DNA of 64,000 nt, from sequence record NZ_CP092111.1; one strand, 5' to 3'. How positions within the stretch are numbered: the stretch's first letter is position 1; the number at the start of each line of letters is the position of its first letter. Position numbers and translations under genes: made by a program. This document shows positions 1 through 40,438 of this stretch, piece by piece. The notes under the pieces are model-generated. The model saw nothing but the letters and a program-made list of their open reading frames with translations, made no database searches and was not told where the DNA came from. The stretch is from a plasmid.

Positions 1-151
1 CATCAGTACCTTTTAATCCATTTAAAATTTTTAAAAAGCGAAAATAAGATAACAAAACATCTTCTATTTCTTCCACATTGTCCAAGGTCAGTTTTTGAAT
101 TATTTTTCCCATCTCCGAAACGGCTTCTTGAGCCATAGCTTGTTTGTTCAT
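1..151 (-). CDS. N-terminal 50 codons of a paralog-family protein; gene runs off the left edge (partial)
   Basis: Reverse complement gives ATG at 149-151 then MNKQAMAQEAVSEMGKIIQKLTLDNVEEIEDVLLSYFRF..., near-identical to the N-terminus of the 13255-14283 protein (MNRQNIAQEAVCEMGKIIQKLTLDNVEEIEGEL...). RBS-like AGAGGGGA lies upstream on the - strand. Confidence 0.6.
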   Translation of the reverse strand, partial: MNKQAMAQEAVSEMGKIIQKLTLDNVEEIEDVLLSYFRFLKILNGLKGTD

Positions 152-261
152 AAACATCCCCTCTAATCTAATTGATTTATCTATTATATTAAGAATACCG
201 TATTGGTTATTAGGTGCGGTACCTTATTCAGGAATGAACAGAAAAGAAAGTTTTTAAAAAC

Positions 262-369
262 ATTTAATTATTAGTTCCTAAATGTTATAATTAATGACGA
301 AAGGAGGGAAACAGCCGGCATAAATGCGCAGCAATCAAAATTTCACACAAAGGAGAGAAGGAATATCTC
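262..369 (+). promoter_or_regulatory. Repeated promoter+leader cassette, copy 1 (extended -10 TGTTATAAT, GAAAGGAGG box, conserved leader ...CCGGCATAAATGCGCAGCAATCAAAATTTCACACAAAGGAGA) ahead of the methyltransferase gene
   Basis: Near-identical cassette also at 2051-2189 and 4777-4909. Contains TTAGTTCCTAAATGTTATAAT and a conserved ~45-nt 3' leader that ends at the RBS. Confidence 0.55.
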
Positions 370-2025
370 ATGGAGATAAAATATAAAGTTTTACACCTTT
401 TTTGCGGGATTGGCGGTGGCGCATTAGGATTTGACAATGCAAAAGGGGAATATAGAGGGGTTAAGGGCAAATTTGAAACTATTTGTGGCATTGATGTAGA
501 TCCTGAAGCATGCGAAGATTTTCGAAATTTAACCGGGCGAAGAATTGAAAAAATGGATCTCTTCGATAGAGAACAATATATACAATTTCATGGACAGGAG
601 CCCCCAGCTGGGTGGAAAGAGGTTACTCCAAAAATGTTAAGGGATACGGTGCATGAGATACCGGACGTTGTGTTTACAAGTCCGCCGTGTAAAGGATTTA
701 GTGGCCTGCTTCCTGAGAAGTCCGCAAAAACACAAAAATACCAGGCGTTAAACAAATTAACAGTCAGAAGTATCAAGCTAACGCTAGAGGCTTTTCAGGA
801 CGATTTGCCGGCGCTTATCCTACTTGAAAATGTTCCCCGTATTGTGAGCCGCGGAAGAGCATTGCTGCGTGAAATTAAACAGCAACTAGAGTTTTTTGGC
901 TATGTAATTAATGAAGACAAAGATAATTACCATGATTGCGGGGAAATAGGTGGGCTGGCGCAACACAGAAAAAGATTCTTATTGATTGCCAGAAATCCAA
1001 ATAAATTAGATTCATTTGTTTATCAGCCTCCCAAACAACCAATGAAAACAATAGGTGATGTAATTGGTCCGTTGCCTTTGCCTGGAGACAAACGATTTGG
1101 CAAGATTCATGCTTTGCCAAATTTGCAATGGAAAACATGGGTGCGTCTTGCCCTTATTCCGGCTGGCGGCGACTGGCGGGATTTAGAAAAAATAGATTGG
1201 AAAAAGTACCGAATTGGATATTTACCAAGAGCCGGCTGTGGTAAAGTAGCTGAATGGGATAAACCATGTGGAACTATAACCGGGGCCGCAGGTGTAAGTC
1301 AAAGTAATAGCACAACTGCAATATCAGATCCGCGGACAGGGTTTAAGTTATCGACTCATCAGGCAATATACAGGGTTCAAAAATGGGAAGATGCTGGCCG
1401 CACTGTTACCGGGGCTATGAGGCCCAATAATGGCGCTTTATGTGTAAATGATCCGCGGTTGCCTATAAGAAAAAATCGGCATGCTGCCGTTTATCAAGTG
1501 GTTAAATGGGAGCAAACGGGGCCTTGTGTGACGGGAACAAGATTTGGGAGTGGAGCTCCCGCAATTTCCGATCCGCGGTTGGATTGTAAGCCCCGAGCTG
1601 GTACGATGGGGGTTCAACGGTGGGATAAACCTTCAAAAACCGTTACCGGGGCAAACGATGTTCATGCAGGAACTTCAGCCGTCGCAGATCCGCGCATTCC
1701 GGAAGATAATGAGACGGGTGTATTTATTATCATATCTGAAGATGGAACGTGGCACAGGCCACTAACAACCTTAGAACTTGCTGTTTTACAAGGACTCCCT
1801 ACGACCTTACCAGACGGAAGACCTCTTATTCTTGCAGGGAAAAGTGATGCAAGATGGAGGGAAAGGATCGGGAATATGGTTCCGGTAGCTGCCGCACAAG
1901 CAATCGCAGAAACCATGCTTAGAACCATGCTTGCTCAAGAAGTAGGCGAATGGCTTATGTCAGCTGAAGATATTTGGGTTGTTCCTCTGAAAAGAGAAAA
2001 TGAAGTTTCTTTTCGGCAATCTTAG
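370..2025 (+). CDS. DNA (cytosine-5)-methyltransferase, orphan, with four tandem ~40-aa repeats in the target-recognition region
   Basis: Motif I FCGIGGG, PC motif SPPCKGFS, ENV motif LLENVP, motif VIII QHRKRF, motif IX RPLTTLELAVLQGLP, motif X IGNMVPV. Between VIII and IX there are four periodic units (W[ED]K/xxxTVTG...DPR; the nt repeat GATCCGCGG recurs at ~120-nt spacing, 1250-1700). No restriction-endonuclease partner is adjacent. Confidence 0.85.
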   Translation: MEIKYKVLHLFCGIGGGALGFDNAKGEYRGVKGKFETICGIDVDPEACEDFRNLTGRRIEKMDLFDREQYIQFHGQEPPAGWKEVTPKMLRDTVHEIPDVVFTSPPCKGFSGLLPEKSAKTQKYQALNKLTVRSIKLTLEAFQDDLPALILLENVPRIVSRGRALLREIKQQLEFFGYVINEDKDNYHDCGEIGGLAQHRKRFLLIARNPNKLDSFVYQPPKQPMKTIGDVIGPLPLPGDKRFGKIHALPNLQWKTWVRLALIPAGGDWRDLEKIDWKKYRIGYLPRAGCGKVAEWDKPCGTITGAAGVSQSNSTTAISDPRTGFKLSTHQAIYRVQKWEDAGRTVTGAMRPNNGALCVNDPRLPIRKNRHAAVYQVVKWEQTGPCVTGTRFGSGAPAISDPRLDCKPRAGTMGVQRWDKPSKTVTGANDVHAGTSAVADPRIPEDNETGVFIIISEDGTWHRPLTTLELAVLQGLPTTLPDGRPLILAGKSDARWRERIGNMVPVAAAQAIAETMLRTMLAQEVGEWLMSAEDIWVVPLKRENEVSFRQS

Positions 2026-2050
2026 AGGGTAGTCAAATCGAAATTTTCAA

Positions 2051-2189
2051 AAAAAATATATTGAATTATTAGTTTTCAATTGTTATAATAAAAACGAAAG
2101 GAGGAAAGAAAAAACTGGATCAGCTGGTAAATAAAAATCAGCCGGCATAAAGCGTAGCAATCAAAATTTCATACAAAAGGAGATTTAAA
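2051..2189 (+). promoter_or_regulatory. Repeated promoter+leader cassette, copy 2
   Basis: TTGAAT-N17-TGTTATAAT, then AAACGAAAGGAGG and the leader ...CAGCCGGCATAAAGCGTAGCAATCAAAATTTCATACAAAAGGAGA directly before the ATG at 2190. Confidence 0.55.
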
Positions 2190-2537
2190 ATGGAAAAGGT
2201 CAAGGTGACAGAAATCCAGTTAACAAGGCTAGAAGGTAGGTTTGTTACGGAGGAAGATAAGGTGGCCGTAGATACTTGGGAAAAGGCAGAACGAGTTCTA
2301 AGAGCGTGGGCTCTTACGGCTCCGAGAAATGGCGCTTATGACAAGGTGAATTTTCATATTAAGTGGGAAGATGGCCATGAATACTCAGGACGTTTTAATT
2401 TGAAAGCGCAGCATTACAATTTGCGTAAGATCCCGCATTTAGCCAACCATGTAAGACGGGATCTCTGGTATTTATTTGAACAATTAGAGCTAGAAGAAGC
2501 GAAGGAAATGCTGGATAAAAGCCAAATTGGAGCATAA
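2190..2537 (+). CDS. hypothetical protein (115 aa)
   Basis: ORF directly downstream of cassette copy 2, with RBS AAAAGGAGA. No recognisable motif. Confidence 0.5.
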   Translation: MEKVKVTEIQLTRLEGRFVTEEDKVAVDTWEKAERVLRAWALTAPRNGAYDKVNFHIKWEDGHEYSGRFNLKAQHYNLRKIPHLANHVRRDLWYLFEQLELEEAKEMLDKSQIGA

Positions 2538-2601
2538 GAGGGATACCCCTCTTTGCTCTCCTCAATCTTTAAAAAGGTTAAAAATAATTGGAGGGATTAA
2601 G

Positions 2602-2979
2602 ATGGAAATGACAAACCAAGAAAAACTTGATTTAATTAACAGCCTGGAGATCGTTGACGTTGATATGGACTGTGAAGGACTTATATATGCTCATGTTGAA
2701 TATTCTCCTGAAAACCTTGCTATATTGGGAAAAGTAGTTCCCAATGTAGAGGATTATTTGGACGATTATGGAGACCCAGAACATGAAGGGGAAGTATTTG
2801 ATATTTCATGGGCCGCGTTTGAATATGCAAAAGCTGATACTTTTCAACGTGAGCAAGGAAAATTCGCGATTTTTTCAAAAGAGGAAGTCATGGATATGTA
2901 TGTGGAAGAACGAGAGAAGCGCCTAAATTTAGAAAGTCGATATCAAAAATTGAAGCGTCAAATTGAGGCTGTTGGGTAA
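2602..2979 (+). CDS. small highly acidic protein (125 aa); possible DNA-mimic/anti-restriction type (speculative)
   Basis: RBS GGAGGG 6 nt before the ATG at 2602. Very D/E-rich sequence (DVDMDCEGL..., EDYLDDYGDPEHEGE). Sits in the leading-region-like block next to the orphan MTase. Confidence 0.45.
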   Translation: MEMTNQEKLDLINSLEIVDVDMDCEGLIYAHVEYSPENLAILGKVVPNVEDYLDDYGDPEHEGEVFDISWAAFEYAKADTFQREQGKFAIFSKEEVMDMYVEEREKRLNLESRYQKLKRQIEAVG

Positions 2980-3064
2980 AAGTTTACCAGCCGCGGATTA
3001 TGGAGTTTTAACCTCATGTAAGGAGGAGAATGAGTGACGATTTACCGTTCTGAGAGGTGTCAGG

Positions 3065-3523
3065 ATGAAGCACATCATAAAGTCATTGGAGAAGGCCTAT
3101 AGGCTATACAAACAGCCGCATAAGATTGGCGATCTCATAGAATTTCAACAAAAACAATGGATTATTATAGGCATTGAAGCTGTTTCGATTGACTTAAATA
3201 AACTGAGGGTTATTTACACAGTTCAAAACGCCGAAGAGGTATACGCGTATCAGCCACCTATTTCAGACAGCGGGAAAACAGTCGAGATAATAGCTCGAGT
3301 TAGAACCGGAAAAGAGGCTATTTTAGAAAAAATACAGGTTGGTCGCTTAGTTTGGATTGATAATAAGCCATATCAATCGGTTGGGTTTATAGATATAGAT
3401 ATTGAATTCACTGATGTTGTCATTACGTTTCTAGGGCGACCAGTTCGCCCTATTCCGATAAAGGAAGTAAGGGCAAAGGTGCTAAACGAGCGAAAGAAAA
3501 AGCTGAATTTACAAGTCTTGTAG
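3065..3523 (+). CDS. hypothetical protein (152 aa)
   Basis: ORF with AGGTG RBS region. No recognisable motif. Confidence 0.45.
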   Translation: MKHIIKSLEKAYRLYKQPHKIGDLIEFQQKQWIIIGIEAVSIDLNKLRVIYTVQNAEEVYAYQPPISDSGKTVEIIARVRTGKEAILEKIQVGRLVWIDNKPYQSVGFIDIDIEFTDVVITFLGRPVRPIPIKEVRAKVLNERKKKLNLQVL

Positions 3524-3607
3524 GGATGGTCGGTCGAAACGTAGGGGACTTCAGGTGGTTGATCATTTGAAATATGAGAATTACTATGTCATATCAGGAG
3601 GAAATTT

Positions 3608-4288
3608 ATGGCCAGGTTTGCTTTACATCCTAAAACAAATGAAAAAATATCTATAGAGGATTGGGAGTTATATCATAAAGAGGAAACACCCATATGCATT
3701 ATTTGTGGACATAATTTATATGTTAGAGCAAACAGTTCCCCTGGTTCTTCAGCTCACTTTGCTCACTATCCTGGATCTAATTGTCCATCAATTCAATATA
3801 ATCGAGAAAAATATGATAGTCTCCAGCCGGTTGAAAAAGACTATCAGAATGCTAAAAAGTTAAAAAAGCATTTGATCAATAACATGTGGCCAGTTTATCA
3901 AAAATGCAAAAGCATATTTGGTCAAGGGTTTAGACAAAAAGATTTTCAAAAAATGATTTTAAAAGCGTCTGAAAGAAGTATTTGGTTCTATAAAGGTATG
4001 ACACTAAAATATTTACCGTATGTTCTGTTAGTAAACTATGGTGTTTTTCAAAAAGAGGACCATCGAAAAAATAAAGTTTATTTTGTATTTGATTCTAAAC
4101 TATCAAACTATGAAGATCTGTGGATTAAGCCAAAAATAAAACAAAAAATGTGGAAGGTATACCCAGAGGAAGGTCAAATTGAGGAAGTCGAGATTGATTT
4201 CGATACTTCTTCTTTGTCACCTGAATATTTTTTGTTTTGGGCCACAGGTTTACAAGGAAAAAAAGAAAATGAATTCTTAGATTGGTAG
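3608..4288 (+). CDS. CoiA-like (competence protein CoiA N-terminal zinc-finger type) family protein
   Basis: N-terminal CIICGHNLYVRANSSPGSSAHFAHYPGSNC matches the CoiA-like CxxC...HFAH...C signature. RBS AGGAGG upstream. Confidence 0.5.
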   Translation: MARFALHPKTNEKISIEDWELYHKEETPICIICGHNLYVRANSSPGSSAHFAHYPGSNCPSIQYNREKYDSLQPVEKDYQNAKKLKKHLINNMWPVYQKCKSIFGQGFRQKDFQKMILKASERSIWFYKGMTLKYLPYVLLVNYGVFQKEDHRKNKVYFVFDSKLSNYEDLWIKPKIKQKMWKVYPEEGQIEEVEIDFDTSSLSPEYFLFWATGLQGKKENEFLDW

Positions 4289-4303
4289 CTAAGGAGGTGA
4301 AAA

Positions 4304-4495
4304 ATGTTAGTGGATGAATATATCAGCTTTTTAGAAAAAGCCAAAGAAAATGCACATGGAATGAGTGCTTATCGGATATTCAGCGATTTAAAAATGGCCA
4401 AAGAACTTCAATCCAAAGGACAAAAGGAGCTTCTAGTGATTGATCCAAAAAAAGAAATCGCGGCGGTCTTTTCTCCGATTAACAAAAATCGATAA
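4304..4495 (+). CDS. hypothetical small protein (63 aa)
   Basis: RBS AAGGAGGTG 7 nt upstream of the ATG. Confidence 0.4.
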   Translation: MLVDEYISFLEKAKENAHGMSAYRIFSDLKMAKELQSKGQKELLVIDPKKEIAAVFSPINKNR

Positions 4496-4499
4496 CACT

Positions 4500-4770
4500 T
4501 TGCATTTACGGCCGACTATAAGAGCGTAATAGAAGATGGATTGAAACCGGCCCCGCCGCGTGCGTCAGCAGCAGGAACAATCTGGCGGGATCCCGGCGAT
4601 CGCTGAAAAAACGCGAGGCGTTCATGGCCGTATACAGAAGCGTGGTAGCTGAAGATGAACGGAAACCGGTGCTGATCGGAGAGGAGCCGGTTTTTTATGG
4701 CCAGGAATGCTCTGCCGCGGTCGTCAGCAGCAGGGTGTTCCCCGCCGTTTCAGAGAAAAGATTTTTAAAA
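4500..4770. repeat. GC-rich composite hairpin repeat locus (B-type subfamily), ~1.2 units
   Basis: ~65 % GC block in AT-rich surroundings. Shares GATCGCTGAAAAAACGCGAGGCGTTCATGG...GAAGCGTGGTAGCTGAAGATGAACGG...GCCGGTTTTTTATGGCCAGGAA with the loci at 11105-11450 and 11935-12300. Confidence 0.7.
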
Positions 4771-4776
4771 AAACCT

Positions 4777-4909
4777 ATTGAAATATTAGTTTCTAATTGT
4801 TATAATGTAATCAAGGAAGGGAGGTAAGAACAAAAACGGTTAGCTTGGTAAATCAAACTACCGGCATACGCGTAGCGATCAAAATTTCACACAAAAGGAG
4901 ACATGTCGA
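4777..4909 (+). promoter_or_regulatory. Repeated promoter+leader cassette, copy 3 (ahead of radC-like)
   Basis: ATTGAAATATTAGTTTCTAATTGTTATAAT, then GGAAGGGAGG and the leader ...CCGGCATACGCGTAGCGATCAAAATTTCACACAAAAGGAGA before the ATG at 4910. Confidence 0.55.
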
Positions 4910-5359
4910 ATGGAACCTATTTTCGAAATTATCAGCCTCAAACAAGAAAAAAAAGAATCAGATTTGATAGGAGCTTTTGAACAGGTTGTAGATGCTGAAG
5001 CCCTTGCGAACGTGGTTAAATACTACATCCAGAATGAAGATCGTGAGGTTTTCTTAGTTATCATTTATAACAACAAGTTGAGAATAACAGCAATTCATCG
5101 ATGCAGCATTGGGGCGCTAAATGCGGCGATTGTTACTCCGAGAGAAGTGTTTAAAGCAGCGATATTGAACAATGCGGCAGCGATTGCAGTAGCTCACAAC
5201 CACCCCAGTTCTGATCCTACAGCAAGCAAGGAGGATATCGAAGTAACAAAGCGGCTTCACCAAGCCGGGGACATCCTCGGCATTGAATTGCTGGATCATA
5301 TCATTGTAGCTGCACACACTGACCGATACGTAAGCCTTAGAGAAAAAGGGATAATATAA
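4910..5359 (+). CDS. radC: RadC-like JAB-domain protein (copy 1)
   Basis: JAB/MPN signature HNHPSSDPTASKEDIEVTKRL...ELLDHIIV. Paralog at 42208-42663. Confidence 0.8.
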   Translation: MEPIFEIISLKQEKKESDLIGAFEQVVDAEALANVVKYYIQNEDREVFLVIIYNNKLRITAIHRCSIGALNAAIVTPREVFKAAILNNAAAIAVAHNHPSSDPTASKEDIEVTKRLHQAGDILGIELLDHIIVAAHTDRYVSLREKGII

Positions 5360-5361
5360 AA

Positions 5362-5384
5362 GAAGGGGGGCTCCCCCCCCTTCT
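5362..5384. terminator. G/C-perfect hairpin immediately after radC-like stop
   Basis: GAAGGGGGGCTCCCCCCCCTTC. No T-tract on + strand but TTTT follows on the - strand reading; possibly bidirectional or a stabiliser hairpin. Confidence 0.35.
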
Positions 5385-5525
5385 GCAAAAGAAAAAAATG
5401 ATAAAGAGCAGCAAAATTGAATTTCGTTTCCTGAATTCGAATAAGAAAACCTTTTGAATAGGGGCTACTTCCTGTATAATTGATATGCACCTTCGTTTTG
5501 TGTGAACGATGGTTGCTACGCGAAG

Positions 5526-5557
5526 GCCCCGACTGATCCTCGGGGCTGTTTTTTTGT
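5526..5557 (+). terminator. rho-independent terminator
   Basis: GCCCCGA-ctgatcc-TCGGGGC followed by TGTTTTTTT. Confidence 0.65.
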
Positions 5558-5609
5558 CCTCATATTGAAAAATGTGCTTTTTAAAACAAAAAAAGGGAGA
5601 TGTTTTTAA

Positions 5610-5996
5610 ATGGAATTTCAATATTTGAGTCGAGAGCATAAGCAGGATTTTCTTGAAATGAGGCGGAATATTCCTGAATATTACCGTTTTAATAAGGAGT
5701 TTCTATCGGTGCTTTATTTAATCTCAGGAAATGAGGAATTAAAACAGAAAGTTGAGCCTTATTTTAATGGGAACAGCGGTATGTTTGATACGGAAAAAAT
5801 GTTTGAAGAGCAAGATTTTTCAGCGGGATTAAGCATATTGGCAAAACTGGCCGTCAATCTATTCAATGCAAATGAAAAAATTAATCCGTTGCAGCTTATG
5901 ATTCTGGATGATGAAAATTTTGAGTTAGCTATGAATGCGATTATATTAAGAAGACAAGGAATTTCAACAGAATATAAATTAAGTCAAAAAAATTAG
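5610..5996 (+). CDS. hypothetical protein (128 aa)
   Basis: ORF with RBS AAAGGGAGA. Confidence 0.45.
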   Translation: MEFQYLSREHKQDFLEMRRNIPEYYRFNKEFLSVLYLISGNEELKQKVEPYFNGNSGMFDTEKMFEEQDFSAGLSILAKLAVNLFNANEKINPLQLMILDDENFELAMNAIILRRQGISTEYKLSQKN

Positions 5997-6001
5997 TGTA
6001 G

Positions 6002-6781
6002 GTGAATGATTTGAAAGGCATCTTTTTATTATCCGTTTCTTTATTTGAAGGGCAGCTTCAGGAGGCCCAAAATGTAGCACAATCATCCGGAGGTCTGGGC
6101 GCAGATCTTAGCCACTTCATCATGTTTGAATACAAGTTACCTAGTTCATTGGAGCCGATCCTTTCAAAATCGGATAATGATGTGTTATCAGCTGAACAAC
6201 TTAGAATCAGTATAGAAGCGAGGGATCACCTTGACTCTATAATTGATAAACTCAAAAAGGAATATCCAAGATCGAGGGAAAGCTATGGTTTGAATCGCTC
6301 TTCTCTTATGAGGGATATTCTCAAGCAATTTATTTTAAAGCGACAAGATCTCGAAAAGAGGGAGGTTCACCATTCGTCTTTTTCGTTCGAAGCAGATAAG
6401 ATTTCGTTTTTGCAAAGTGTTCTCCCATTCAAGGAGAGAGATCGGACTATTGAGCACTTTATTCTTAATTCTTATGCCCCCTCTGAAACAGAACCTCCAG
6501 AGTCTCACAAGCCAAAGAACATGAGCCAGATAAGAATAAAAATGGATGTGAGAGCATTTGAAAAGCTGGATAATATTGTTGACCAGTTTAAAGGAAAAGG
6601 TCTGACGAGAGCAGATGTAATGCGTCATGTTGTTGATCAACTTATAAAAGAATTATCTACTACGGACAATGTTAAAGCCTTTACGGAGGAAAAATTAGAT
6701 GAGGCTGTCCGGAACTTCAGAGAGGTACACGGGGCAGATAGACTAAAGGAAAAATTAACTGAATATGACAGACGGCAATAA
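6002..6781 (+). CDS. hypothetical protein (259 aa) with two ribbon-helix-helix-like segments
   Basis: GTG start. Segments RSRESYGLNRSSLMRDILKQFI and GLTRADVMRHVVDQLIKEL resemble RHH/CopG-type DNA-binding motifs (weak). Confidence 0.4.
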   Translation: MNDLKGIFLLSVSLFEGQLQEAQNVAQSSGGLGADLSHFIMFEYKLPSSLEPILSKSDNDVLSAEQLRISIEARDHLDSIIDKLKKEYPRSRESYGLNRSSLMRDILKQFILKRQDLEKREVHHSSFSFEADKISFLQSVLPFKERDRTIEHFILNSYAPSETEPPESHKPKNMSQIRIKMDVRAFEKLDNIVDQFKGKGLTRADVMRHVVDQLIKELSTTDNVKAFTEEKLDEAVRNFREVHGADRLKEKLTEYDRRQ

Positions 6782-6822
6782 GTAAGCAGCTTTCCGGATC
6801 CAGCTATGGAAAGGAGCCTTTT

Positions 6823-7035
6823 ATGAATATGTGTGGAATAACTGACTGGGGAAGTGCATTTTATGCTTTCGTTGAGACGACTCAAAAGCATAATTTACCC
6901 TTCCCGGAGGATGCAGCTGATTGGAGTACGGCCAAGTTGATAGCCGAAATAGAGAGGATAAACAAGGGGGAGATGGGGTTGTTAAAGAGATCCAGGCGAC
7001 TGAGGCAATCCAACAGGAAGGAGAGAAAAGCATAA
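6823..7035 (+). CDS. hypothetical small protein (70 aa)
   Basis: RBS GGAAAGGAG upstream. Confidence 0.4.
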
Positions 7036-7036
7036 A

Positions 7037-7492
7037 ATGAAAAAGTTACTTACTGCTGTATGCACTCTTCTTCTAATTTCAATTGGAGCTTATGTAACTG
7101 GAAATTCGCCAATAGATTTACTATCGCATCACCAAAACACAACTGCAGCTGAAGAAAATTCAACCTCATATGATCAAAAGATCTATTTTCCTGCTGATAA
7201 GTACCCTGAAACCGCTAAACACATAAAAACGGCCATTAAAGAAGGCCATTCGAAAATCTGTACAATTGATCGAGATGGTGCCGATGAAAACCGCGAGGAA
7301 TCTTTGAAGGATGTCCCAACCAAAAAAGGGTATGATCGTGATGAATGGCCAATGGCAATGTGTCAGGAGGGCGGAGCCGGTGCCGATATTGAATACATAG
7401 AGCCATCAGATAACCGCGGGGCGGGATCCTGGGTTTCTCATCAGTTAGATGATTTTCCAGACGGAACTAGAGTATTATTTGTTGTGAAATAG
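7037..7492 (+). CDS. secreted NucA/NucB-family DNase (copy 1)
   Basis: Signal peptide, then [101 protein letters not shown]. The B. subtilis NucA/NucB sequence as I recall it has the same pattern. Confidence 0.8.
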
Positions 7493-7611
7493 ATGGAAGA
7501 GCAGCTGCTGGCATTTTATTTCGTTCGTGAGTGATCAAAGATCGGAAGATGGCCATAATTTCTTGTTCGTGTTTGTTGAATCCAGAATCACTAAAAACAA
7601 AGGAGATGCTT

Positions 7612-8778
7612 ATGGAATTTATAAAGAGCCTCTTATTCATCGTCTATGCGATCTTGCTACATGTGTATTCAAAAGATTCAGCCAGCAAACTTCAACGGCA
7701 TGTCTATAATTTTTTCATCCTTGTCGCTATTGTATGGTTGATTACCTTTAGTTTTTTTCCGTATTGGAAAATGGTTATTACTTTTAGTTTTTTGGTCGTT
7801 AATATCTATGCAGTCAAGACAATATTAACAAAAATCAAAACTGGGAAATTTGTTGCCCCACCGGCTTGGATTCCCTTGATGACAGTCGCTGGCATTTGTA
7901 CAGCAGGCATCATTATTCCAAGTTGGGAATCAACGCTAGTCACTGTGGCGTTTGGTGTTTTTCTATTCAGCATTCTTATCGTTTTAGAAAAGGTGCAGCA
8001 GCAGAATGAGATTTACGAAAATCGAAAATCCACTTCCGAGCTAAATGACCGGGAAAAAATAGTAGAACGGATTAAAAAAGAAAACATCATCCTTGAGCAA
8101 AAAAATTCTCATTCACCTAATCTTTATACTTTTGTTCATGAAATAAATGTGGCTGACAACAGTGTACTTCGCAACTATATTATTGAGCCCCTTCATCCAG
8201 AAACCAGCATCAATAGACAAGCACATTCCTTAGCGCATGAGTTAGGGCATTATTATAACTCCATCGAGAGAAAACGTTCCTTCCATAGTTTTATTTTAGA
8301 TTGTCGTAAAGCGAAAAGACTGAAACCGATTTGCGGATTATTTGTTTTATACGATGAATGGAGTGCCTGGAATCGCGCAAAGCAAATCTGCCTTGAAGAA
8401 GGTGTAGACATTAGCTTTTTTCATTTTTCGAGAAAAACAGCTTTTTCAACTTATGTTAAAGCATACTGGGAGTCCATCATAAGGCCATTTAAAACATTGA
8501 TAGGTACGTATATTTTTAGCGTGGCAATCGTGCTGTTTTCTGTGTTGCTAACTGACGCAGACATTCACCTTCCTTTTAAATTAGATGCTTTGACAAATTC
8601 TATTGCAATTACAACTGATAGGACAGGAGCAGTAAATTTCATTTTCTTCATCATCATGCAGATTCGCTTTTTGAGATGGGTGTTTGGACTGTTTTTTAAA
8701 AAATCTGTTACAGACTATCAATATGCACCAGAAGATGGTTTTGTAACAACGGGAAATGCAAAAAAGATTAAGGACTAA
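7612..8778 (+). CDS. polytopic membrane protein (~388 aa), unknown function
   Basis: RBS AAAGGAG 6 nt before the ATG at 7612. At least 6 hydrophobic helices. Contains an HELGH stretch. Confidence 0.5.
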   Translation: MEFIKSLLFIVYAILLHVYSKDSASKLQRHVYNFFILVAIVWLITFSFFPYWKMVITFSFLVVNIYAVKTILTKIKTGKFVAPPAWIPLMTVAGICTAGIIIPSWESTLVTVAFGVFLFSILIVLEKVQQQNEIYENRKSTSELNDREKIVERIKKENIILEQKNSHSPNLYTFVHEINVADNSVLRNYIIEPLHPETSINRQAHSLAHELGHYYNSIERKRSFHSFILDCRKAKRLKPICGLFVLYDEWSAWNRAKQICLEEGVDISFFHFSRKTAFSTYVKAYWESIIRPFKTLIGTYIFSVAIVLFSVLLTDADIHLPFKLDALTNSIAITTDRTGAVNFIFFIIMQIRFLRWVFGLFFKKSVTDYQYAPEDGFVTTGNAKKIKD

Positions 8779-8970
8779 GAGCAATTCCTCATGATAACAT
8801 AAAGGAGAATCGGACAGTCGAAAGGCAGCCGTTTTTCTTAGCCATAGGTCGCTTGCTGCGGGCGCCAGTTAAATGATTGAGAAACCTGGACATAATTAGA
8901 GGAGTTTGCACTTAGCAAGGCCTAAGATTGAATGACAGCCTTTGGGCTGGACCTTGAAAGGAGGTGGTTA

Positions 8971-9355
8971 TTTGCGTATCTCCAGTGAAATTTATGTAGG
9001 TGAACCTAAAATACCGATATGGGTTAAATTCGTTATTATTTGGAATATCATTATGATTACAGTTGGCGTGATTGTATATCAGATTGCACCTTTTAATCTT
9101 GGCCGATATATTCTGATCTATATTCTTCTTTGGTGGTTTACTGGGTTCCCATTTGTCGCTGAAAAATTTATGCATGGTTTCTCTAAAGAAGAAACACGCA
9201 TTGACTCGATGTATAAGAAGAAGCTGATTAAACGTCATATCGGTGGTGAAGTTCTTTCATATGATCGGAAAGAAAAAACATATAAGGTACTAGACAGAGG
9301 GAAATTTCTGAAGGTGAAATATTATAAAGGACACTTGCTTGTGGAAGAAGATTAA
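8971..9355 (+). CDS. small membrane protein (~128 aa)
   Basis: TTG start after GAAAGGAGGTGG. Three predicted TM helices. Confidence 0.45.
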
Positions 9356-9412
9356 GTAAGGGTGATCCGTCGTCTTTCTTTGAATCAATTACTAATAACA
9401 AAGGAGAATATC

Positions 9413-9988
9413 ATGGAATTCACAATTTCAGAGCGTCCAAATAATATCTTTTACGGCGATATATGTAAGATTAACGGACAAGGTTGCCTGATCTTTGGTT
9501 TTGGCAAGTCAAAGGCTGCCCAAATAGCTTCCTCCGACAATATGATTGCTTATGATATGGCATGTCTTACAAAAGATGATGAGGGAACTTTATATGGTCA
9601 CTTTGAAACCGAAATTCGAGCCAAAGGAATTAGTGATCCAATAAAAGAAAGAATTGAGATTAAACACTTTTTAAGAATGCTTGATCAGGAAGAAACAAAC
9701 AAATTGCTTTGGATCAACCCTCATTTAAAGGAACTTGATAGACTAATTGAAATACCTTATGAGAACTTCATTGAAATTTCTCAATTCAATATTACTTTTA
9801 CAGCCCCAGCTGATTTTCCATTTAGACCCGAAGGATTGCCTGAAATTGAAAGAGATCCTCAAAAGAGAATAGAACACTTTATCAAGCTGTCAAAGGATTC
9901 AAATGTCCGTACTTTTGTGGTACCGTGGAGAGAAACTGTTGAGGAAAAAGCTGTAATGATTAAAGAGGCTTTTGGTTTGCAGCCTTAA
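9413..9988 (+). CDS. hypothetical protein (191 aa)
   Basis: RBS AAAGGAGAA 6 nt upstream of the ATG at 9413. Confidence 0.45.
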   Translation: MEFTISERPNNIFYGDICKINGQGCLIFGFGKSKAAQIASSDNMIAYDMACLTKDDEGTLYGHFETEIRAKGISDPIKERIEIKHFLRMLDQEETNKLLWINPHLKELDRLIEIPYENFIEISQFNITFTAPADFPFRPEGLPEIERDPQKRIEHFIKLSKDSNVRTFVVPWRETVEEKAVMIKEAFGLQP

Positions 9989-10074
9989 AGGATTGGAGGG
10001 ATTCTGTCGCTTGTCCAAAAAAAGTAAGAACGCCCCAGACTCCGACATCTAGGCGTTCCTACCGTTGATTGGAA

Positions 10075-10190
10075 TAAAAGCCGACTCCCTTACAGGAGCT
10101 ATTCTATTGCCGATCGGAGATGTTAGCAGCATCTTCGATCTTTTTGTATTACAGTATACTCTTATTGTATCAACGAACCTTTAAGCATGT
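10075..10190. repeat. Left arm of long inverted repeat bounding the hfq cassette
   Basis: AAAGCCGACTCCCTTACAGGAGCTATTCTATTGCCGATCGGAGATGTTAGCAGCATCTTCGATCTTTTT...TTGTATCAACGAA is the reverse complement (≈90 % identity) of 11575-11745. Confidence 0.7.
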
Positions 10191-10318
10191 CTATATTTAT
10201 TACAGGTGTTTTCTGCTGATTGATGAGAAAATGCTGTACGTTCATAGCCGTCTATGGAAGCGTGGTAGGAGTTGATTTCCTTAGAAATGTGTTACTATCT
10301 TGGGTGAAGGTGAGGATT

Positions 10319-10753
10319 ATGAAACAAGTAAATTTATATATAAGGACTCATCAAGTAAGGAATTTAGAAAATGTAAGAATAAAATACATAGGCTGTCTGT
10401 TACTAGAATATAAGGGGAAACGTAAGTACGTGTTCATTGATAATGTGGGGGAACGTGATCAAAGGGCTTCAATGTTGAGGTTGGTATGTAGTGGACTGAA
10501 AATGTTGAAAGAACCTTGTGAGATACTGGTTTTGACGCTAAATGATATTGAAAAGAAGTGGAAGAAATATAGTGACTTATGGAATGAAGTAAATGAGCGT
10601 GTAGTTGCTGGAGGGCATGATTTAAGTTTTAAGGTCTGTAAAAATTCTGATGAGGATACAGGAGAAGTATTCAAAATATTTAAGAGTAAGTTAGATCGTT
10701 ATAAGAGGTCATATAAAAACAGGCTCAAGCTTCATTTGATGCATAGCAAATAA
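10319..10753 (+). CDS. hypothetical protein (~144 aa)
   Basis: ATG at 10319 (MKQVNLY...) after GGTGAAGGTGAGG. Lies inside the IR-bounded cassette. Confidence 0.4.
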   Translation: MKQVNLYIRTHQVRNLENVRIKYIGCLLLEYKGKRKYVFIDNVGERDQRASMLRLVCSGLKMLKEPCEILVLTLNDIEKKWKKYSDLWNEVNERVVAGGHDLSFKVCKNSDEDTGEVFKIFKSKLDRYKRSYKNRLKLHLMHSK

Positions 10754-10852
10754 ATTCTATGTTAAGATAAAAAAAACAAAAGAGTTAAGTTTTCCATGGA
10801 AGAAGAGATGTTTTTTCATCTTGCCGATTCTATTTTTTTGTGAGGTGATTTT

Positions 10853-11104
10853 ATGGCGACTGCAGAAAGGCAAGCAAAGCAATCAGAAGTAAAAAAGAAA
10901 CCTTCTCAACATAGTGTTCAGAATCAATATTTACAAAGGCATGTGGGTCATACGCTTGTATGCTTGTTAAATTCTAAAACTAAAGTGAAAGGAAAGCTTC
11001 TGGAATATGATACATACACACTGTTACTGGAAACGCCAGAAGGTGAAGAGTTTTTAGTGTTTAAACACCATATTGAGCTTATTAAAAAGATCAAGGCGGA
11101 ATAA
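10853..11104 (+). CDS. hfq: Hfq-like Sm-fold RNA chaperone paralog (83 aa, with ~25-aa N-terminal extension)
   Basis: QNQYLQRHVGHTLVCLLNSKTKVKGKLLEYDTYTLLLETPEGEEFLVFKHHIELIK matches the Hfq Sm1/Sm2 pattern (N..L......V.vfLlNG..l.G.i..fD.ft.lLe.....q.lvyKHaIs). Confidence 0.7.
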   Translation: MATAERQAKQSEVKKKPSQHSVQNQYLQRHVGHTLVCLLNSKTKVKGKLLEYDTYTLLLETPEGEEFLVFKHHIELIKKIKAE

Positions 11105-11450
11105 AAGCCGTTTTTTTATAGTTAGTAAATGGCTCTCCGCGGGCGACAGCTCCAGGAGTCTGCCGGTGGCCACCGGCCATCGATGAAAAAACGCCAGGCG
11201 TTCACGGTCCGCCTTGTGGAAGCGTGGCAGCTGAATATGAAGAACAGCCGGCTTTTTTTGTGGCCAGGAAGGGCTCTCTTCGGGCGACAGTTGCAGGAAT
11301 TCCGCCGGTGCCCCCGGTGATCGATGAGAAAACGCGGGGCGTTTACGGTTGCCTGCGAAGTTCAGCAGCTGAAGGTGAAAGGAAGACGGGAATACCCCGC
11401 TAGAGGCCGCCGCCAGTAAGGAAAGACCCCTGCCTCACATGAGACAGGGG
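11105..11450. repeat. GC-rich composite hairpin repeat locus (B-type), ~1.5 units
   Basis: GATGAAAAAACGCCAGGCGTTCACGG...GCCGGCTTTTTTTGTGGCCAGGAAGG..., ~65 % GC. Confidence 0.7.
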
Positions 11451-11574
11451 TCTTAAATTTCCTCAGCCGGCTGGTTTTTAGGTTCCTCGTTTTGTTCTTC
11501 TATTGGTACACTTTTTGGGGTGATTTTTGGAACATCAAATACGTCTAGCTTCTGGACATGCTGTGATTTTGTTG

Positions 11575-11745
11575 ATACAATCAATGTGTAAATGAATACA
11601 ATGTATGTAAATGAATACAATGTATGTAAATGAGTATAATGTATACAAAAGAGACTATAATAAAGAAAAAGATCGAAGATGCGGCTAACATCTCCGATCG
11701 GCAATAGGAGGCTCCGGTAAGGGAGTTCGGCTTTTTCCAAAGTTT
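11575..11745. repeat. Right arm of long inverted repeat, including a 3x tandem 20-bp repeat (AATGAATACAATGTATGTAA)
   Basis: The reverse complement matches 10075-10190. The internal 20-mer x3 lies at 11583-11645. Confidence 0.7.
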
Positions 11746-11934
11746 AATTTAAAGTGAGAACGTCATGATTGGTAGTCGGGGCGTCTTACTTTTTTTGTTC
11801 GAGAAACTATGGGCAAGCGTCAAAATCCCAACAATCAGGATTCCAAATTGAAACATCAATCCAAGTGCGCTTTCTACTGCCATATTCTCACTTCCCCTCT
11901 TTCTGGAGGTGACTCCTATCCTTTTAGGTGGGGG

Positions 11935-12300
11935 TTATCAATGCTCGCCAGATGAAGGAACTGACGGCGCCCTTGGCGATTGATGAGAAAACACTAGGCG
12001 TTCAGGGCCTGCCTGCAGAAGAGAACAGCTGAATGTGAACGAGAGCCGGTGCCCGTTGAAGGGCAGCCGGCTTTTTTATGGCCAAGAACGCCCTGCCGCG
12101 GTCGCCTGCTGAAGGAATCTGCCGGTGCCCCCGGTGATCGATGAGAAAACGCGGGGGGGTCAAAGTCCGTCTGTAGAAGCGAATAGCTGAATATGAACGA
12201 GAGCCGGTGCCCGCTGGAGGGCAGCCGGCTTTTTTGTGGCCAGGAACGCCTCGCCGTGGTCGCCAGCAGCCAGAAATCTGCTCGGTATATGCGTGTCAAT
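11935..12300. repeat. GC-rich composite hairpin repeat locus (B-type), ~1.7 units
   Basis: GATGAGAAAACACTAGGCGTTCAGGG...GCCGGCTTTTTTATGGCCAAGAACG... repeated twice. Confidence 0.7.
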
Positions 12301-12458
12301 AGGTGCGGGGGTGACTCACATCGCTTGCCCCGTATCTATTGGATAAGTCGACTAATCATAATGTTTGTAAAAAAAGAGCGAATGACGGGGATTCACCTTT
12401 GATAATGTCAACTGAAAATAAAAGGTAAAGTGTCTTTACCATTGAATTATAAAATGAG

Positions 12459-13025
12459 GTGATGAACGCAATGATAAACGATAAGGAACATATGAATGAG
12501 TACGGCTATTTTGCTAAGGATGTTGCAGCCGATTTGAGTGTGACATCTTCAACACTAAGGCGGTGGTCCCTGGAGTTAGAGAAGCATGGATATGTATTTG
12601 AAAGAAATGAAAAGGAGCAGAGGATTTATTTTGAACGCGATTTTAAAACGTTCAGAGAACTTAAAAGACTTTTATCAAACTCTGTCCCGTTTGTAGACGC
12701 AATAAAAGCTGTTGCAGTAACCAAAACTGACGAGACAAACGCGTCAAGAACGCAAGGCGTTTTTTTCGATAGGCGTTTATCAGAGCAACAATTTAGAGAG
12801 ATTATAAACGAAGAAGTAAAGGCAGCTATGGCGGAAGAGAGAGAAATGATGTTTCGAGCATTTGAAAAGAAGTTAGATAACATTATCGAACGTCGGGACC
12901 GTTCCCTAATGCATGAGATTCGAAAAAATAGAGAAAGGCAGCTTCTTGAAACGGCAGCTACTGTGGAGACTCCAAGTAAGTCTGCAGAGAAAAAGTCTTT
13001 TTGGAGGCGTATATTTTACAAATAA
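12459..13025 (+). CDS. MerR-like N-terminal HTH protein with coiled-coil C-terminus (paralog A)
   Basis: YGYFAKDVAADLSVTSSTLRRWSLELEKHGYVFERN resembles a MerR-family HTH. Paralog at 15139-15699 (~55 % identity). Confidence 0.55.
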   Translation: MMNAMINDKEHMNEYGYFAKDVAADLSVTSSTLRRWSLELEKHGYVFERNEKEQRIYFERDFKTFRELKRLLSNSVPFVDAIKAVAVTKTDETNASRTQGVFFDRRLSEQQFREIINEEVKAAMAEEREMMFRAFEKKLDNIIERRDRSLMHEIRKNRERQLLETAATVETPSKSAEKKSFWRRIFYK

Positions 13026-13254: not shown

Positions 13255-14283
13255 TCATTCAAATACTAAAGACTTTGCGGTTTGAACGAGGCTGCTTATC
13301 CCTCTACTATCTGTCAAAGTGAATGGTTTTTCATACTTTTTTGCAAATTCTTTTGCTTTTTCTGCTGTGGGATGATTGATGTTTAATTTCATAGTGATTA
13401 ACATGTCACAACTTTTAACCATACTTTCAAGCCGTTTGGTATTTTCATTGCCGTAAGCATGGATAAGCACTCCTCCGACACTCGTTATTGCTTTTTCAAA
13501 TTCACTCGTTCTGGTACCACCTAACACTAGTACCTTTTTTCCGTTCAATTCATTTGTTATTGTGGTATCTAATTTAGGATTTTTAGTTTTATAATGGGAA
13601 GAAGGAGAAGGTGGAGCATGTTTGATTTCATCCGTATTATGTTTCCATATCACTTTGAACACATCTACATTGTCACTGTAATAAGCTATATCAACAACTG
13701 AACCGATCTCAAGATCCTCCCTTGTTCTTGTATCGTCATTGATAAGAAAAGTATGTGGTGCATCATTATATTTTATGGATTTGATTTTTCCATCGTTATC
13801 TAAGTATTCAGAGGCAACTAGCATAGAATCGCGATTTGATAGAACACAATAATTTAATTGAATTCGGTTTGTTTGCTTGCGTTTTTTGGCCTTTTCTATT
13901 AACTCAAAATAAAATTTTTCGTTTCCTAAATGGACTGCTGAAATTAAATCTCCATCTTCAAATTGTTGTTTTCGTATAATGTTTTCGGGAACATATAAAT
14001 TAATCTCTTCTATAATTCCTCCTTTTAAAAGTCTTTTAAATTCATAACAATTTATCTGTTTTGCTTTTTCGTCTGTCTCTTCTAGTTGAATATGTTCCAC
14101 ATCATTTTTTGAGCATGGTTCTAATTCATGTGAAACCGATACTTTTAAAGCAGCTAAGCTCTTAATAAAATGAAAATAGGTGGATAATTCACCTTCAATT
14201 TCTTCCACGTTGTCCAGTGTCAGTTTTTGAATTATCTTTCCCATCTCACAAACGGCTTCCTGAGCTATATTTTGTCTGTTCAT
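13255..14283 (-). CDS. paralog-family protein (342 aa) with conserved C-terminal ~100-aa domain (GG..T..FEKAI..GG.LIHAYGNE...LESM...CDMLITMKLNINHPT); unknown function
   Basis: Full-length copy. Two further copies are cut by the window edges (1-151 and 63482-64000). RBS on the - strand. Confidence 0.6.
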   Translation of the reverse strand: MNRQNIAQEAVCEMGKIIQKLTLDNVEEIEGELSTYFHFIKSLAALKVSVSHELEPCSKNDVEHIQLEETDEKAKQINCYEFKRLLKGGIIEEINLYVPENIIRKQQFEDGDLISAVHLGNEKFYFELIEKAKKRKQTNRIQLNYCVLSNRDSMLVASEYLDNDGKIKSIKYNDAPHTFLINDDTRTREDLEIGSVVDIAYYSDNVDVFKVIWKHNTDEIKHAPPSPSSHYKTKNPKLDTTITNELNGKKVLVLGGTRTSEFEKAITSVGGVLIHAYGNENTKRLESMVKSCDMLITMKLNINHPTAEKAKEFAKKYEKPFTLTDSRGISSLVQTAKSLVFE

Positions 14284-15138: not shown

Positions 15139-15699
15139 CTAAGTTTTTGAAAATAAACGTTTCCAAAAACCGGATCTTTTTTTAGAATCGACGGCAGCTG
15201 CTATTTCAGGTTTTTTCTGTGCTCTATTTTCTTGGATTGCCTTTAATAATTGGCGATCTCTTCTTTCAATTTCATTATTCATTTTGGATTCTAAGATCGT
15301 AAGAAATGTTTCTCTTTCCTCTTCTAATGCTGTTTTCAACTGTTCGCTAATCAGTTGTCTTAGCTCATTGCTAGAAAGGACAATATGTTTTTCATTGCTA
15401 TCATGTAACTCAGTGGAGTTATAGTGTTGCTCCTTTTTGGCGACTGTACTCCTAACAGCATTATTAAGTGGCACTGACGATGATAGGAGTTGCTGAAGTG
15501 ATTTTAAACAGTTAATATCATTTTGAAAATATATTCGTTGATCCTGGTCGTTCCGTGTAAAAGTGTAGCCGGCCTTTTCCATTTCAATGGACCATCTTCT
15601 AAGTGTAGAGGGTGTTATTTTTAATTTATGTGCCACGTCTTTTGAAAAAAAGCCATATTCTCCTCTATGATTAGTTTCACTTGACATAAAATAAATCAC
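15139..15699 (-). CDS. MerR-like N-terminal HTH protein (paralog B)
   Basis: YGFFSKDVAHKLKITPSTLRRWSIEMEKAGYTFTRN. Paralog of 12459-13025. Confidence 0.55.
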   Translation of the reverse strand: MIYFMSSETNHRGEYGFFSKDVAHKLKITPSTLRRWSIEMEKAGYTFTRNDQDQRIYFQNDINCLKSLQQLLSSSVPLNNAVRSTVAKKEQHYNSTELHDSNEKHIVLSSNELRQLISEQLKTALEEERETFLTILESKMNNEIERRDRQLLKAIQENRAQKKPEIAAAVDSKKRSGFWKRLFSKT

Positions 15700-28255: not shown

Positions 28256-28702
28256 ATGATAAGAGGAAGATGTACCACAGCTGTGTTCAAAATTCCAAAT
28301 GTGATTCGTGGGCTAGCAGGATCGAGTGACGGAGGGATATCTCTTCCGTTCTCTGCCACGACTACGCAGGCAATTTTAGCGTTTGTCTTTCTATTAATGG
28401 GTATTCCAGCGTATTTAATTTCTAATTGGCTTTTTCCGTTTGTTCCAGCGATTGCCCGTTTCTTGATATTAATTATTATTGTCCCACTTGCATTAGGCTA
28501 TAAATTGGGAATGCAACAGAGGGAAAGCATGAGCATGATTCGTTACTGGATCATCAAATGGAAAACCAAATATGAGCCTAATGAAATGATAAGATTTGAA
28601 GAGGTTGAACAAGATAAAGAAATTCGATTCGAACAAAAAATCAGAATGAAGCGACATTTCAAATATCCGAAAGAGGTGAAAAATATTGAAATACGAGAGT
28701 GA
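28256..28702 (+). CDS. small T4SS membrane protein (ConD-like, ~148 aa)
   Basis: ATG at 28256 after GGGAGGTG. Two or three TM helices. Precedes the VirB4-like gene, as ConD does. Confidence 0.5.
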   Translation: MIRGRCTTAVFKIPNVIRGLAGSSDGGISLPFSATTTQAILAFVFLLMGIPAYLISNWLFPFVPAIARFLILIIIVPLALGYKLGMQQRESMSMIRYWIIKWKTKYEPNEMIRFEEVEQDKEIRFEQKIRMKRHFKYPKEVKNIEIRE

Positions 28703-39187: not shown

Positions 39188-39323
39188 AGTAAACCTCCAC
39201 ATTGTTTGGGTATTGTTTCTCTAATTTTCCGTCCTAAACCCTAATAATATCCTCTTATTCTGAATGTTGAAAGTTCCAAAGGGAGGATGCGGGCAAGACA
39301 TAAGAGAGAACTTTCCCTTGTGT

Positions 39324-39370
39324 TAAGTATAACATATGCTATAGTAATTGTATAGCATATGTTATACAAA
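39324..39370. promoter_or_regulatory. Palindromic operator/promoter element, copy a (TATAACATATGCTATA-n7-TATAGCATATGTTATA)
   Basis: Perfect 16-bp inverted repeat. Upstream of the - strand operon 39187..37311. Confidence 0.7.
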
Positions 39371-39371
39371 A

Positions 39372-40058: not shown

Positions 40059-40132
40059 AAGAACAGCTCCTTATTTTCGATTATGGAGAGCATTCACGCG
40101 GGGAATGAACCACGCGTGAATGCAACTAAGCA

Positions 40133-40436: not shown

Positions 40437-40438
40437 GT

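Follow-up and report, generated by a model that had tools for sequence, protein, structure and literature searches.

The window analysed here is a stretch of 64,000 nucleotides from a plasmid (NZ_CP092111.1), and the subject of this report is a short promoter-leader cassette that is repeated near its start, together with a candidate small RNA (sRNA) gene that lies beside one of the genes it precedes. We observed three copies of the cassette, at 247-369, 2045-2189 and 4762-4909 (all on the + strand), and every element that a first-pass annotation of the sequence had described in them was found where it had been placed. The start codons at 370, 2190 and 4910 form the exact 3' limits of the copies. 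Copy 1 is placed to drive a C5 DNA methyltransferase gene (370-2025), copy 2 a gene for a 115-amino-acid (aa) protein and four further genes (2190-4495), and copy 3 the radC gene (4910-5359). In Pfam searches, the gene behind copy 1 matched DNA_methylase and that behind copy 3 matched RadC, while the 115-aa protein matched no family.

The cassettes are 120-150 bp long with a GC content of about 30%, and an A/T-rich stretch is present at the upstream end of each. In copy 1, a -35 element (TTTAAT, 263-268) is followed by an extended -10 (TGTTATAAT, 283-291), a box resembling a Shine-Dalgarno (SD) sequence (GAAAGGAGG, 299-307) and the leader core (326-355). The same order of elements was seen in copy 2 (TTGAAT, 2061-2066; TGTTATAAT, 2081-2089; GAAAGGAGG, 2096-2104; leader core, 2152-2182) and in copy 3 (TTGAAA, 4778-4783; TGTTATAAT, 4798-4806; the variant box GGAAGGGAGG, 4815-4824; leader core, 4870-4900). 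The SD-like box lies 7-8 nt 3' of the -10. The leader core has the sequence GCG(C/T)AGC(A/G)ATCAAAATTTCA(C/T)ACAAA(A)GGAG and continues into the ribosome-binding site of each ATG. Copy 1 is without a variable middle segment of about 30 nt, which in copy 2 contains a small hairpin (2123-2146); the sequences GGATCAGCTGGTAAAT and GGTTAGCTTGGTAAAT are common to copies 2 and 3, as had been claimed.

The repeats stood out clearly in pattern and profile searches. ATCAAAATTTCAYACAAA had exactly three sites with 0 mismatches, and allowing up to 3 mismatches yielded none beyond these (0.65 expected at that setting). The promoter pattern gave 3 matches against 0.08 expected, and the cassette profile found the three copies with E = 1e-17 to 1e-31. 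Beyond the first 5 or so coding bases (ATGGA) the copies are no longer alike, and the genes that follow them are unrelated, which agrees with the earlier view that the copies are not a triplication including coding sequence. By consensus match alone, the promoters of copies 2 and 3 (TTGAAA/TTGAAT-17-TATAAT with a TG extension) agree with 10-11 of the 12 consensus positions; copy 1 has a weak -35 and the same extended -10 as the other copies. As judged from these motifs, the cassettes carry ordinary double-stranded sigma-A promoters. Both strands of the three cassettes were also examined for a single-stranded-DNA hairpin promoter of the Frpo/ssi type, and the folds were at the level of shuffled sequences (z = -0.6 to +0.4). 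This ruled out a reading of the cassettes as single-stranded-DNA promoters.

A further extended -10 (TGTATAAT, 5473-5480, + strand) was found about 110 nt 3' of the radC stop codon, and here CCTGTATAAT is invariant in three plasmid lineages in which the upstream intergenic DNA is about 40% identical. It precedes a candidate trans-antisense sRNA of about 70 nt (5487-5555, + strand), which is supported by its fold, terminator, conservation and target ranking. The predicted RNA consists of a 5' hairpin (5487-5516) whose loop and arms contain the anti-leader sequence UUUUGUGUGAA, a single-stranded segment UGGUUGCUACGCG, a GC-rich terminator hairpin (5526-5547) and a U-run (U7, 5549-5555). Its fold is more stable than that of shuffled sequences (z = -3.06). 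All 19 of its 19 base pairs are kept in the three lineages, with 2 compensatory double changes (one in each hairpin, C-G to U-A and G-C to A-U) and 2 one-sided changes. No conserved open reading frame was seen at the sRNA locus, where the sole frame of 35 aa is broken by indels. With Rfam 15, nothing in the window reached the gathering score, and 200-5700 had no match even at E <= 1.

The reverse complement of the sRNA is collinear with the leader, first through GCGTAGCAA and then TTCACACAAAA, with weaker GATCAG and A-run matches to copies 2 and 3. A covariance model built on the sRNA recovered one gene in the window (E = 1e-21), after which leaders 3 and 2 were its next matches, each on the antisense strand; conversely, in each locus examined, the leader profile also matched the sRNA site, on the other strand. 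Taken alone, the strict local alignment between leaders and reverse-complemented sRNA reached only moderate significance (z = 1.9-4.7). From these matches we conclude that the predicted sRNA is an inverted homologue of the leader. The first-pass annotation had pointed to a complementarity between TTCACACAA and the sRNA; this was borne out (the reverse complement lies at 5496-5506), and the complementarity extends well beyond the TTCACACAA core.

We then estimated how well the sRNA would bind its possible targets. Net binding energy was taken as the energy of the sRNA and target folded together minus the energies of the two folded separately, and was calculated for 8,508 windows of 60 nt on both strands, leaving out the sRNA's own antisense. 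The three leaders occupied the first three ranks (leader 3, -25.2 kcal/mol; leader 2, -22.1 kcal/mol; leader 1, -21.7 kcal/mol), while the best unrelated window reached -15.5 kcal/mol and the background was -3.8 +/- 2.1 kcal/mol (mean +/- standard deviation). The pairing is predicted to involve a first helix of 12-13 bp between GCGUAGCNAUCA of the leader and UGGUUGCUACGC[G] of the sRNA, and a second of 11 bp between UUCACACAAAA of the leader and UUUUGUGUGAA of the sRNA; three further predicted pairs extend into the GGA of the Shine-Dalgarno sequence. Eight leader variants all scored between -15 and -27 kcal/mol, and in two distant loci (L002 and L003) it was again the radC leader that ranked first for the local sRNA. 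The suggestion that the conserved leaders reflect a common regulator acting on RNA is supported, and the sRNA is a good candidate for this regulator: the three leaders are its best predicted targets in the window, and the pairing is kept in distant plasmids.

Together, these observations suggest an RNA-based switch for plasmid entry and anti-restriction genes; no description of the cassette or the sRNA was found in the literature searched. We put it at somewhat better than even that the repeat is a portable expression cassette for establishment and anti-restriction genes, co-regulated post-transcriptionally by the antisense sRNA predicted beside radC. In the mechanism that we propose, the strong sigma-A extended -10 promoter of each cassette would drive transcription, and a 30S subunit bound to the 5' SD-like box would block 5'-to-3' decay by RNase J1; the open leader, the promoter and the stabiliser would together give high expression. 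The sRNA, if produced, would pair with GCGUAGC(A/G)AUCA, UUCACACAAAA and part of the GGAG of all three mRNAs, and this pairing would hide the ribosome-binding region and repress translation in trans rather than activate it. Double-stranded RNA would be formed, and its cleavage would probably be triggered too. Expression would be high while the sRNA is scarce, for example just after entry, and would be damped once the sRNA accumulates.

The two ends of the leader are consistent with this scheme. We observed no conserved structure in the leader (the consensus fold energy is about 0, and the single-sequence fold z is about 0 against shuffles), which fits a binding site and not a riboswitch. At the 5' end, GAAAGGAGG or a close variant of it is present in 9 of 9 cassette variants, some 2-10 nt from where the mRNA is predicted to start, is complementary to the 3' end of 16S rRNA and has no ATG, GTG or TTG 4-12 nt downstream. 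By analogy, the most likely role of the SD-like box is that of the STAB-SD stabiliser of cry3A, in which a bound 30S subunit blocks RNase J1 (PMC4113751). The STAB-SD of B. thuringiensis cry3A (Agaisse & Lereclus 1996; Mathy 2007) is likewise a 16S-complementary box in a 5' untranslated region without a start codon at initiation distance. It differs in that the cry3A element marks a processed transcript end, whereas the cassette box lies near a predicted primary 5' end.

To see how the cassette behaves elsewhere, we compared the region with other plasmids. The window belongs to a Bacillus plasmid, and its positions 1-8000 are 95-98% identical to pTAB7A (CP032539, B. licheniformis), CP116015 (B. 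velezensis) and MF996509 (B. glycinifermentans). The first-pass annotation had proposed a search for the leader motif in other plasmids, and this brought up further copies in pTAB7A and MF996509, as well as a related module in plasmids of 136-155 kb. There are six cassettes in pTAB7A (the extra ones at 13782-13884, 15396-15521 and 18100-18219) and at least four in MF996509 (the extra one at 24479-24581), with a different gene behind each. The extra cassettes precede small genes without a Pfam family (76, 82, 102, 84 and 56 aa), and in the window the place of the extra-cassette region is taken by an island at 39-42 kb. As each copy ends at the start codon of a different gene, the cassette behaves as a portable unit.

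This portability could also be explained without any dedicated regulator, if the cassette were no more than a strong-expression module, made up of promoter, 5' stabiliser and translation-enhancing leader and spread along with gene cassettes by recombination, and the RNA after radC were a leader or attenuator of the downstream DUF6075 operon that shares its ancestry. The exact end of homology at the start codons of unrelated genes and the change in copy number from 3 to 6 among close relatives are what such a module would produce. The arrangement 3' of the sRNA is also compatible with it: the DUF6075 gene (5610-5996, + strand) lies directly 3' of the sRNA terminator, no promoter of its own was seen in 5556-5609, and the sole nearby site in a consensus scan (5653-5682) lies inside the gene, so that the DUF6075 operon may be expressed by readthrough of the terminator. 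What this explanation leaves unaccounted for is the inverted copy, which has kept at least 24 complementary positions and is still the best-conserved 30-nt stretch of the locus across about 30% divergence, and the top rank of the leaders in three independent lineages. We regard it as quite improbable.

The more distant relatives bear on the role of the sRNA. Plasmids of 136-155 kb from B. subtilis, B. velezensis and Bacillus sp. contain the arrangement promoter-leader-radC-sRNA-DUF6075 again, about 70-74% identical; in these plasmids radC alone bears the leader, and the sRNA adjoins radC. The radC gene is the single one with the cassette leader in all three plasmid lineages. The DUF6075 gene is syntenic in the three lineages, with 60% amino-acid identity to the L003 copy; the DUF6075 protein had no match in the PDB. 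Across lineages, identity is highest in the sRNA core (90-93%), and is 77-100% in the leader core, about 73% in the radC coding sequence and about 40% in intergenic DNA. The base 5' of GCGUAGC covaries between leader and sRNA, forming a C:G pair in the window and an A:U pair in L003.

We also considered that radC and the sRNA might form an addiction module of the type I toxin-antitoxin kind, in which the mRNA would be stable and the antisense RNA labile; the remaining leaders would be secondary acquisitions. In the large plasmids leader and sRNA meet only at radC. The putative 5' stabiliser on the mRNA and the coverage of the ribosome-binding region by the sRNA would both suit such a module. 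However, type I toxins are small hydrophobic peptides, and the targets here encode soluble proteins of 115-551 aa; no small conserved open reading frame is found at the sRNA locus, and the same leader also stands before the methyltransferase and other genes. We think a toxin-antitoxin function very improbable, and both it and a mere expression module fit the data less well than regulation by the antisense sRNA.

Conservation within the cassette could be compared between promoter and transcript. The promoter spacer, TTAGTT(T/C)CTAA, is found at 271-282, 2069-2080 and 4786-4797 and in the pTAB7A copies, and forms a small palindrome, TTAG-N3-CTAA. Among the six copies of the window's lineage, the spacer is conserved as strongly as the leader core (both 0.87-0.91, with the flanking parts at 0.24-0.65), and the spacer is not kept in the distant lineages, where its conservation is 0.20 and that of the transcribed core 0.93-1.0. 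Conservation across lineages of the transcribed leader, but not of the promoter spacer, suggests that selection acts on the RNA. The spacer may be a lineage-specific operator.

The main rival to the sRNA is a DNA-binding repressor as the common regulator; the spacer TTAGTTTCTAA matches the leader core in within-lineage conservation. Such a protein would bind either a bipartite site, GCGTAGCA-N7-8-TTCACACAAAA, or the spacer, and transfer into a repressor-free recipient would give transient expression. The bipartite site would lie 3' of four promoters, three times in the sense orientation and once inverted before an autoregulated DUF6075 operon, like reg in p576. For p576, control of this kind by Reg576 through the EGeRS2 sequences has been proven (PMC6294495, PMC8708921). 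The palindrome within the spacer and the conservation of an unpaired AAA(U/C) in the leader would both suit a repressor. A possible source is the lineage-specific gene at 6002-6781 (+ strand), 3' of DUF6075, which encodes a 259-aa protein.

We observed by eye two ribbon-helix-helix-like stretches in this protein, LRISIEARDHLDSII...GLNRSSLMRDIL and IRIKMDVRAFEKLDNIV...GLTRADVMRHVV. It had no Pfam match and no PDB sequence match, one cluster of close homologues was found, and its AlphaFold model, with a pLDDT of 38, was unusable; the gene is absent from the distant plasmids. Neither this protein nor DUF6075 contains a Pfam ribbon-helix-helix or helix-turn-helix domain, and this counts against a repressor, as does the absence of the Reg576 operator. 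The loss of the spacer across lineages, next to a transcribed core that is kept, speaks in the same direction; moreover, the core has no dyad or direct-repeat symmetry, and its two blocks are 8 nt apart in the leaders and 7 nt apart in the sRNA gene of the window. A repressor would also leave unexplained the strong terminator after the inverted copy and the compensatory changes in the sRNA hairpins. We think it unlikely that a repressor is the common regulator, although the repressor and sRNA layers may coexist.

Several observations weigh against regulation by the antisense sRNA as we have proposed it. The covariation is weak, with 53 of 500 shuffles reaching the observed value, because only three sRNA lineages are present in the collections searched (plasmid, genome, metagenome and viral). 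The pattern scan of genome contigs gave one true match (B. glycinifermentans GO-13, of the L002 type) together with 25 chance matches, a single metagenome contig matched and is identical to the window, and the viral scan gave no match. The predicted pairing is not lineage-specific. Raw RNAduplex energy, which takes no account of accessibility, fails to single out the leaders over the window, as GC-rich repeats score equally well. The leader AAA(U/C) between the two helices is conserved yet predicted to be unpaired, which indicates that an additional constraint acts there. Three promoters with stabilised mRNAs would face one sRNA promoter, and full silencing is not obvious. Finally, MOB-suite types these plasmids as non-mobilizable, though genes of a type IV secretion system are present.

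Of the genes behind the cassettes, the first (370-2025, + strand) encodes an orphan C5 cytosine methyltransferase of 551 aa with four tandem internal repeats, W(E/D)KP..TVTG..SDPR (DNA repeats D3 and D14). Multispecific methyltransferases of Bacillus phages contain multiple target-recognition modules, and by analogy the internal repeats may be such modules. The operon behind copy 2 (2190-4495, + strand) comprises genes for proteins of 115, 125 (acidic, pI 4.3), 152, 226 and 63 aa; none has a confident family, and the 226-aa protein gave a weak match to CoiA_N/DUF7830. Between this operon and cassette 3 lies a GC-rich repeated element (4497-4760, + strand) of two units of about 159 nt, with a terminator-like hairpin and T-run at 4674-4700. 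The radC gene (4910-5359, + strand) encodes a RadC-like JAB-domain protein of 149 aa. A GC hairpin 3' of it (5361-5384, + strand) lacks a + strand T-run. Readthrough is therefore possible, and radC transcripts may continue across the sRNA region, which would put an anti-leader sequence in their own 3' end.

The GC-rich element is one of several in this part of the window. Repeats of about 140-160 nt with 55-60% GC, mostly as tandem pairs, were seen at 4497-4760, 10218-10268, 11100-11500 and 11900-12400, and several of the units carry a terminator-like hairpin and a T-run. Open reading frames called over these repeats (for example 4624-4827) are probably spurious. The segment at about 11500-11910, between two of the GC-rich islands, is 75-90% identical to regions annotated as 'putative holin-like toxin' in many Bacillus plasmids, including pBS32 of NCIB 3610, and is likely, on this similarity, to be a type I toxin-antitoxin locus. 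Genes of the DUF2325 family at 1-160 (- strand; cut by the window start and named from the pTAB7A annotation) and 13255-14283 (- strand) flank the + strand block of 0.2-13 kb.

A paralogue of Hfq was found at 10853-11104 (+ strand; Pfam Hfq 28.3 bits, cutoff 27). It is limited to the window's plasmid lineage and a 22-kb B. subtilis plasmid, CP141999, whose accession number adjoins that of CP141998, which carries the radC-sRNA module. The plasmid Hfq could be a chaperone of the sRNA, but the large plasmids have the sRNA without it. We rejected it as an obligatory partner, as it occurs only in the window's lineage and the one 22-kb plasmid and is missing from the module-bearing plasmids of 136-155 kb.

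The first-pass annotation had also linked the cassette leaders to those of the island at 39-42 kb. The sequence TTCACACAA(A/T)A does occur six times at 40.3-42.2 kb, and a 9-mer is common to the two sets of leaders, but the net binding of the sRNA to the island leaders is only -0.7 to -4.7 kcal/mol, which is background. The link did not hold up, and the island leaders at 40-42 kb were rejected as sRNA targets. The island (39300-42700, both strands) contains a different cassette in six copies, with TTCACACAATA at 40356, 40785, 41553, 41713, 41824 and 42177. Most of them have an operator-like palindrome, AACATATGCTTTAC..GTAAAGCATATGTT (14-bp arms), over a TGTTATACT promoter; 3' of the promoter come a 5' hairpin (GTCATCAGGTGATGGTGAC), ATTCACACAATAAATTT and the ribosome-binding site. 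These cassettes precede small genes, including a second radC (42199-42663; Pfam RadC 1.9e-36). By its sequence organisation, the island looks like a repressor-controlled regulon of its own.

How anti-restriction and establishment genes of Gram-positive conjugative plasmids are switched on briefly after entry is largely an open question. The pair described here, an RNA of 70 nt and a leader of about 45 nt, is a compact candidate that is easy to move into B. subtilis reporters. If the proposed regulation is true, it would add an RNA-level circuit to the DNA-level ones that are known, explain the common leader on unrelated genes, and make the leader a sequence tag by which functionally uncharacterised establishment genes could be found, among them the 115-aa gene, RadC and the DUF6075 partners. 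Should the sRNA prove to be without effect, the cassette would still be a natural module of strong promoter, stabiliser and ribosome-binding site, possibly useful for Bacillus expression.

Finally, we compared the region with known establishment and RNA systems. The genes from 370 to 13025 are all on the + strand, which is also the strand of the conjugation operon; this includes a VirB4-like ATPase at 28686-31232 and, as per the pTAB7A annotation, TcpC/TcpE-like and replication-relaxation proteins. Orphan methyltransferases are enriched in leading regions (PMC11541004). As far as annotation can tell, the gene content and orientation are compatible with an establishment region, and the block may belong to the leading region. 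In Bacillus plasmids, repeated regulatory sequences named EGeRS1 and EGeRS2 stand before establishment operons (PMC8708921). EGeRS2, with its regulator Reg576, of B. pumilus p576 (Val-Calvo 2018, 2021) resembles the present system in having several sigma-A promoter repeats of about 140 bp before unrelated establishment genes. Plasmids of the EGeRS2 type carry anti-restriction genes and those of the EGeRS1 type carry methylases, and one plasmid regulator was proposed to give transient expression after transfer. The difference is that the regulator of EGeRS2 is a ribbon-helix-helix protein that binds TTATCCCnnTTATCCC by the -35, while here it is the leader that is conserved and the candidate regulator is an RNA. 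The dual heptamer operator TTATCCCnnTTATCCC was not found with up to 3 mismatches in or near the cassettes (5 sites in the window against 7 expected by chance). As to a ribbon-helix-helix reg gene behind its own copy of the repeat, no neighbouring protein gave a Pfam match of this kind, and the 259-aa protein shows ribbon-helix-helix-like patterns.

EGeRS1 of the pLS20-family plasmids and pBS72 (Val-Calvo 2021), whose mechanism of control was called unknown by its authors, is similar in that conserved repeats lie directly 5' of the ribosome-binding sites of establishment operons. It is unlike the cassette in being 420-750 bp long, about 51% GC, rich in inverted repeats and without a sigma-A promoter; the cassette is short, AT-rich and unstructured, with a near-consensus promoter. 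The GC-rich repeats of the window (4.5-4.75, 11.1-11.5 and 11.9-12.4 kb) are like EGeRS1 in composition and terminators and in the idea of a structured element that would stop readthrough, and their BLAST matches are to close relatives only. The plasmid group of the window is absent from the listed members of the pLS20 family. The cassette meets the definition of neither EGeRS1 nor EGeRS2. A bolder view, which we hold as possible but doubtful, is that it represents a third, RNA-based control of establishment genes, next to single-stranded-DNA promoters and Reg-type repressors or EGeRS1: an antisense RNA of about 70 nt, arisen from an inverted duplication of the leader, would silence translation of the whole regulon of stabilised and strongly transcribed mRNAs in resident cells and allow a burst on entry into a recipient without the sRNA, and the leader would double as a recombination handle for the swapping of anti-defence genes (3 to 6 operons in relatives).

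The CUP (conserved upstream) repeats of the IncN plasmid pKM101 (Delver and Belogurov 1997) are reportedly promoter-bearing repeats before several leading-region genes that form one regulon. Compared by concept, they differ from the cassette in being Gram-negative, in the use of the protein repressors ArdK and ArdR and in having no sequence relationship to it. The study of 1997 is cited in PMC6294495. In c4 of phages P1 and P7, CI of P4 and FinP-traJ of F-like plasmids, a small structured RNA masks the ribosome-binding site in a leader. The likeness is that an RNA made by the element itself pairs with shared leader targets and keeps genes silent in the established state, which for the window is a prediction. 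The origin of the RNA sets these systems apart: c4 and CI arise by processing of the very transcript under their control, and FinP is a genuine cis-antisense RNA, whereas the sRNA of the window is predicted to have a promoter to itself, is encoded at a distance of 0.6-5 kb from its targets and appears to be an inverted paralogue of the leader.

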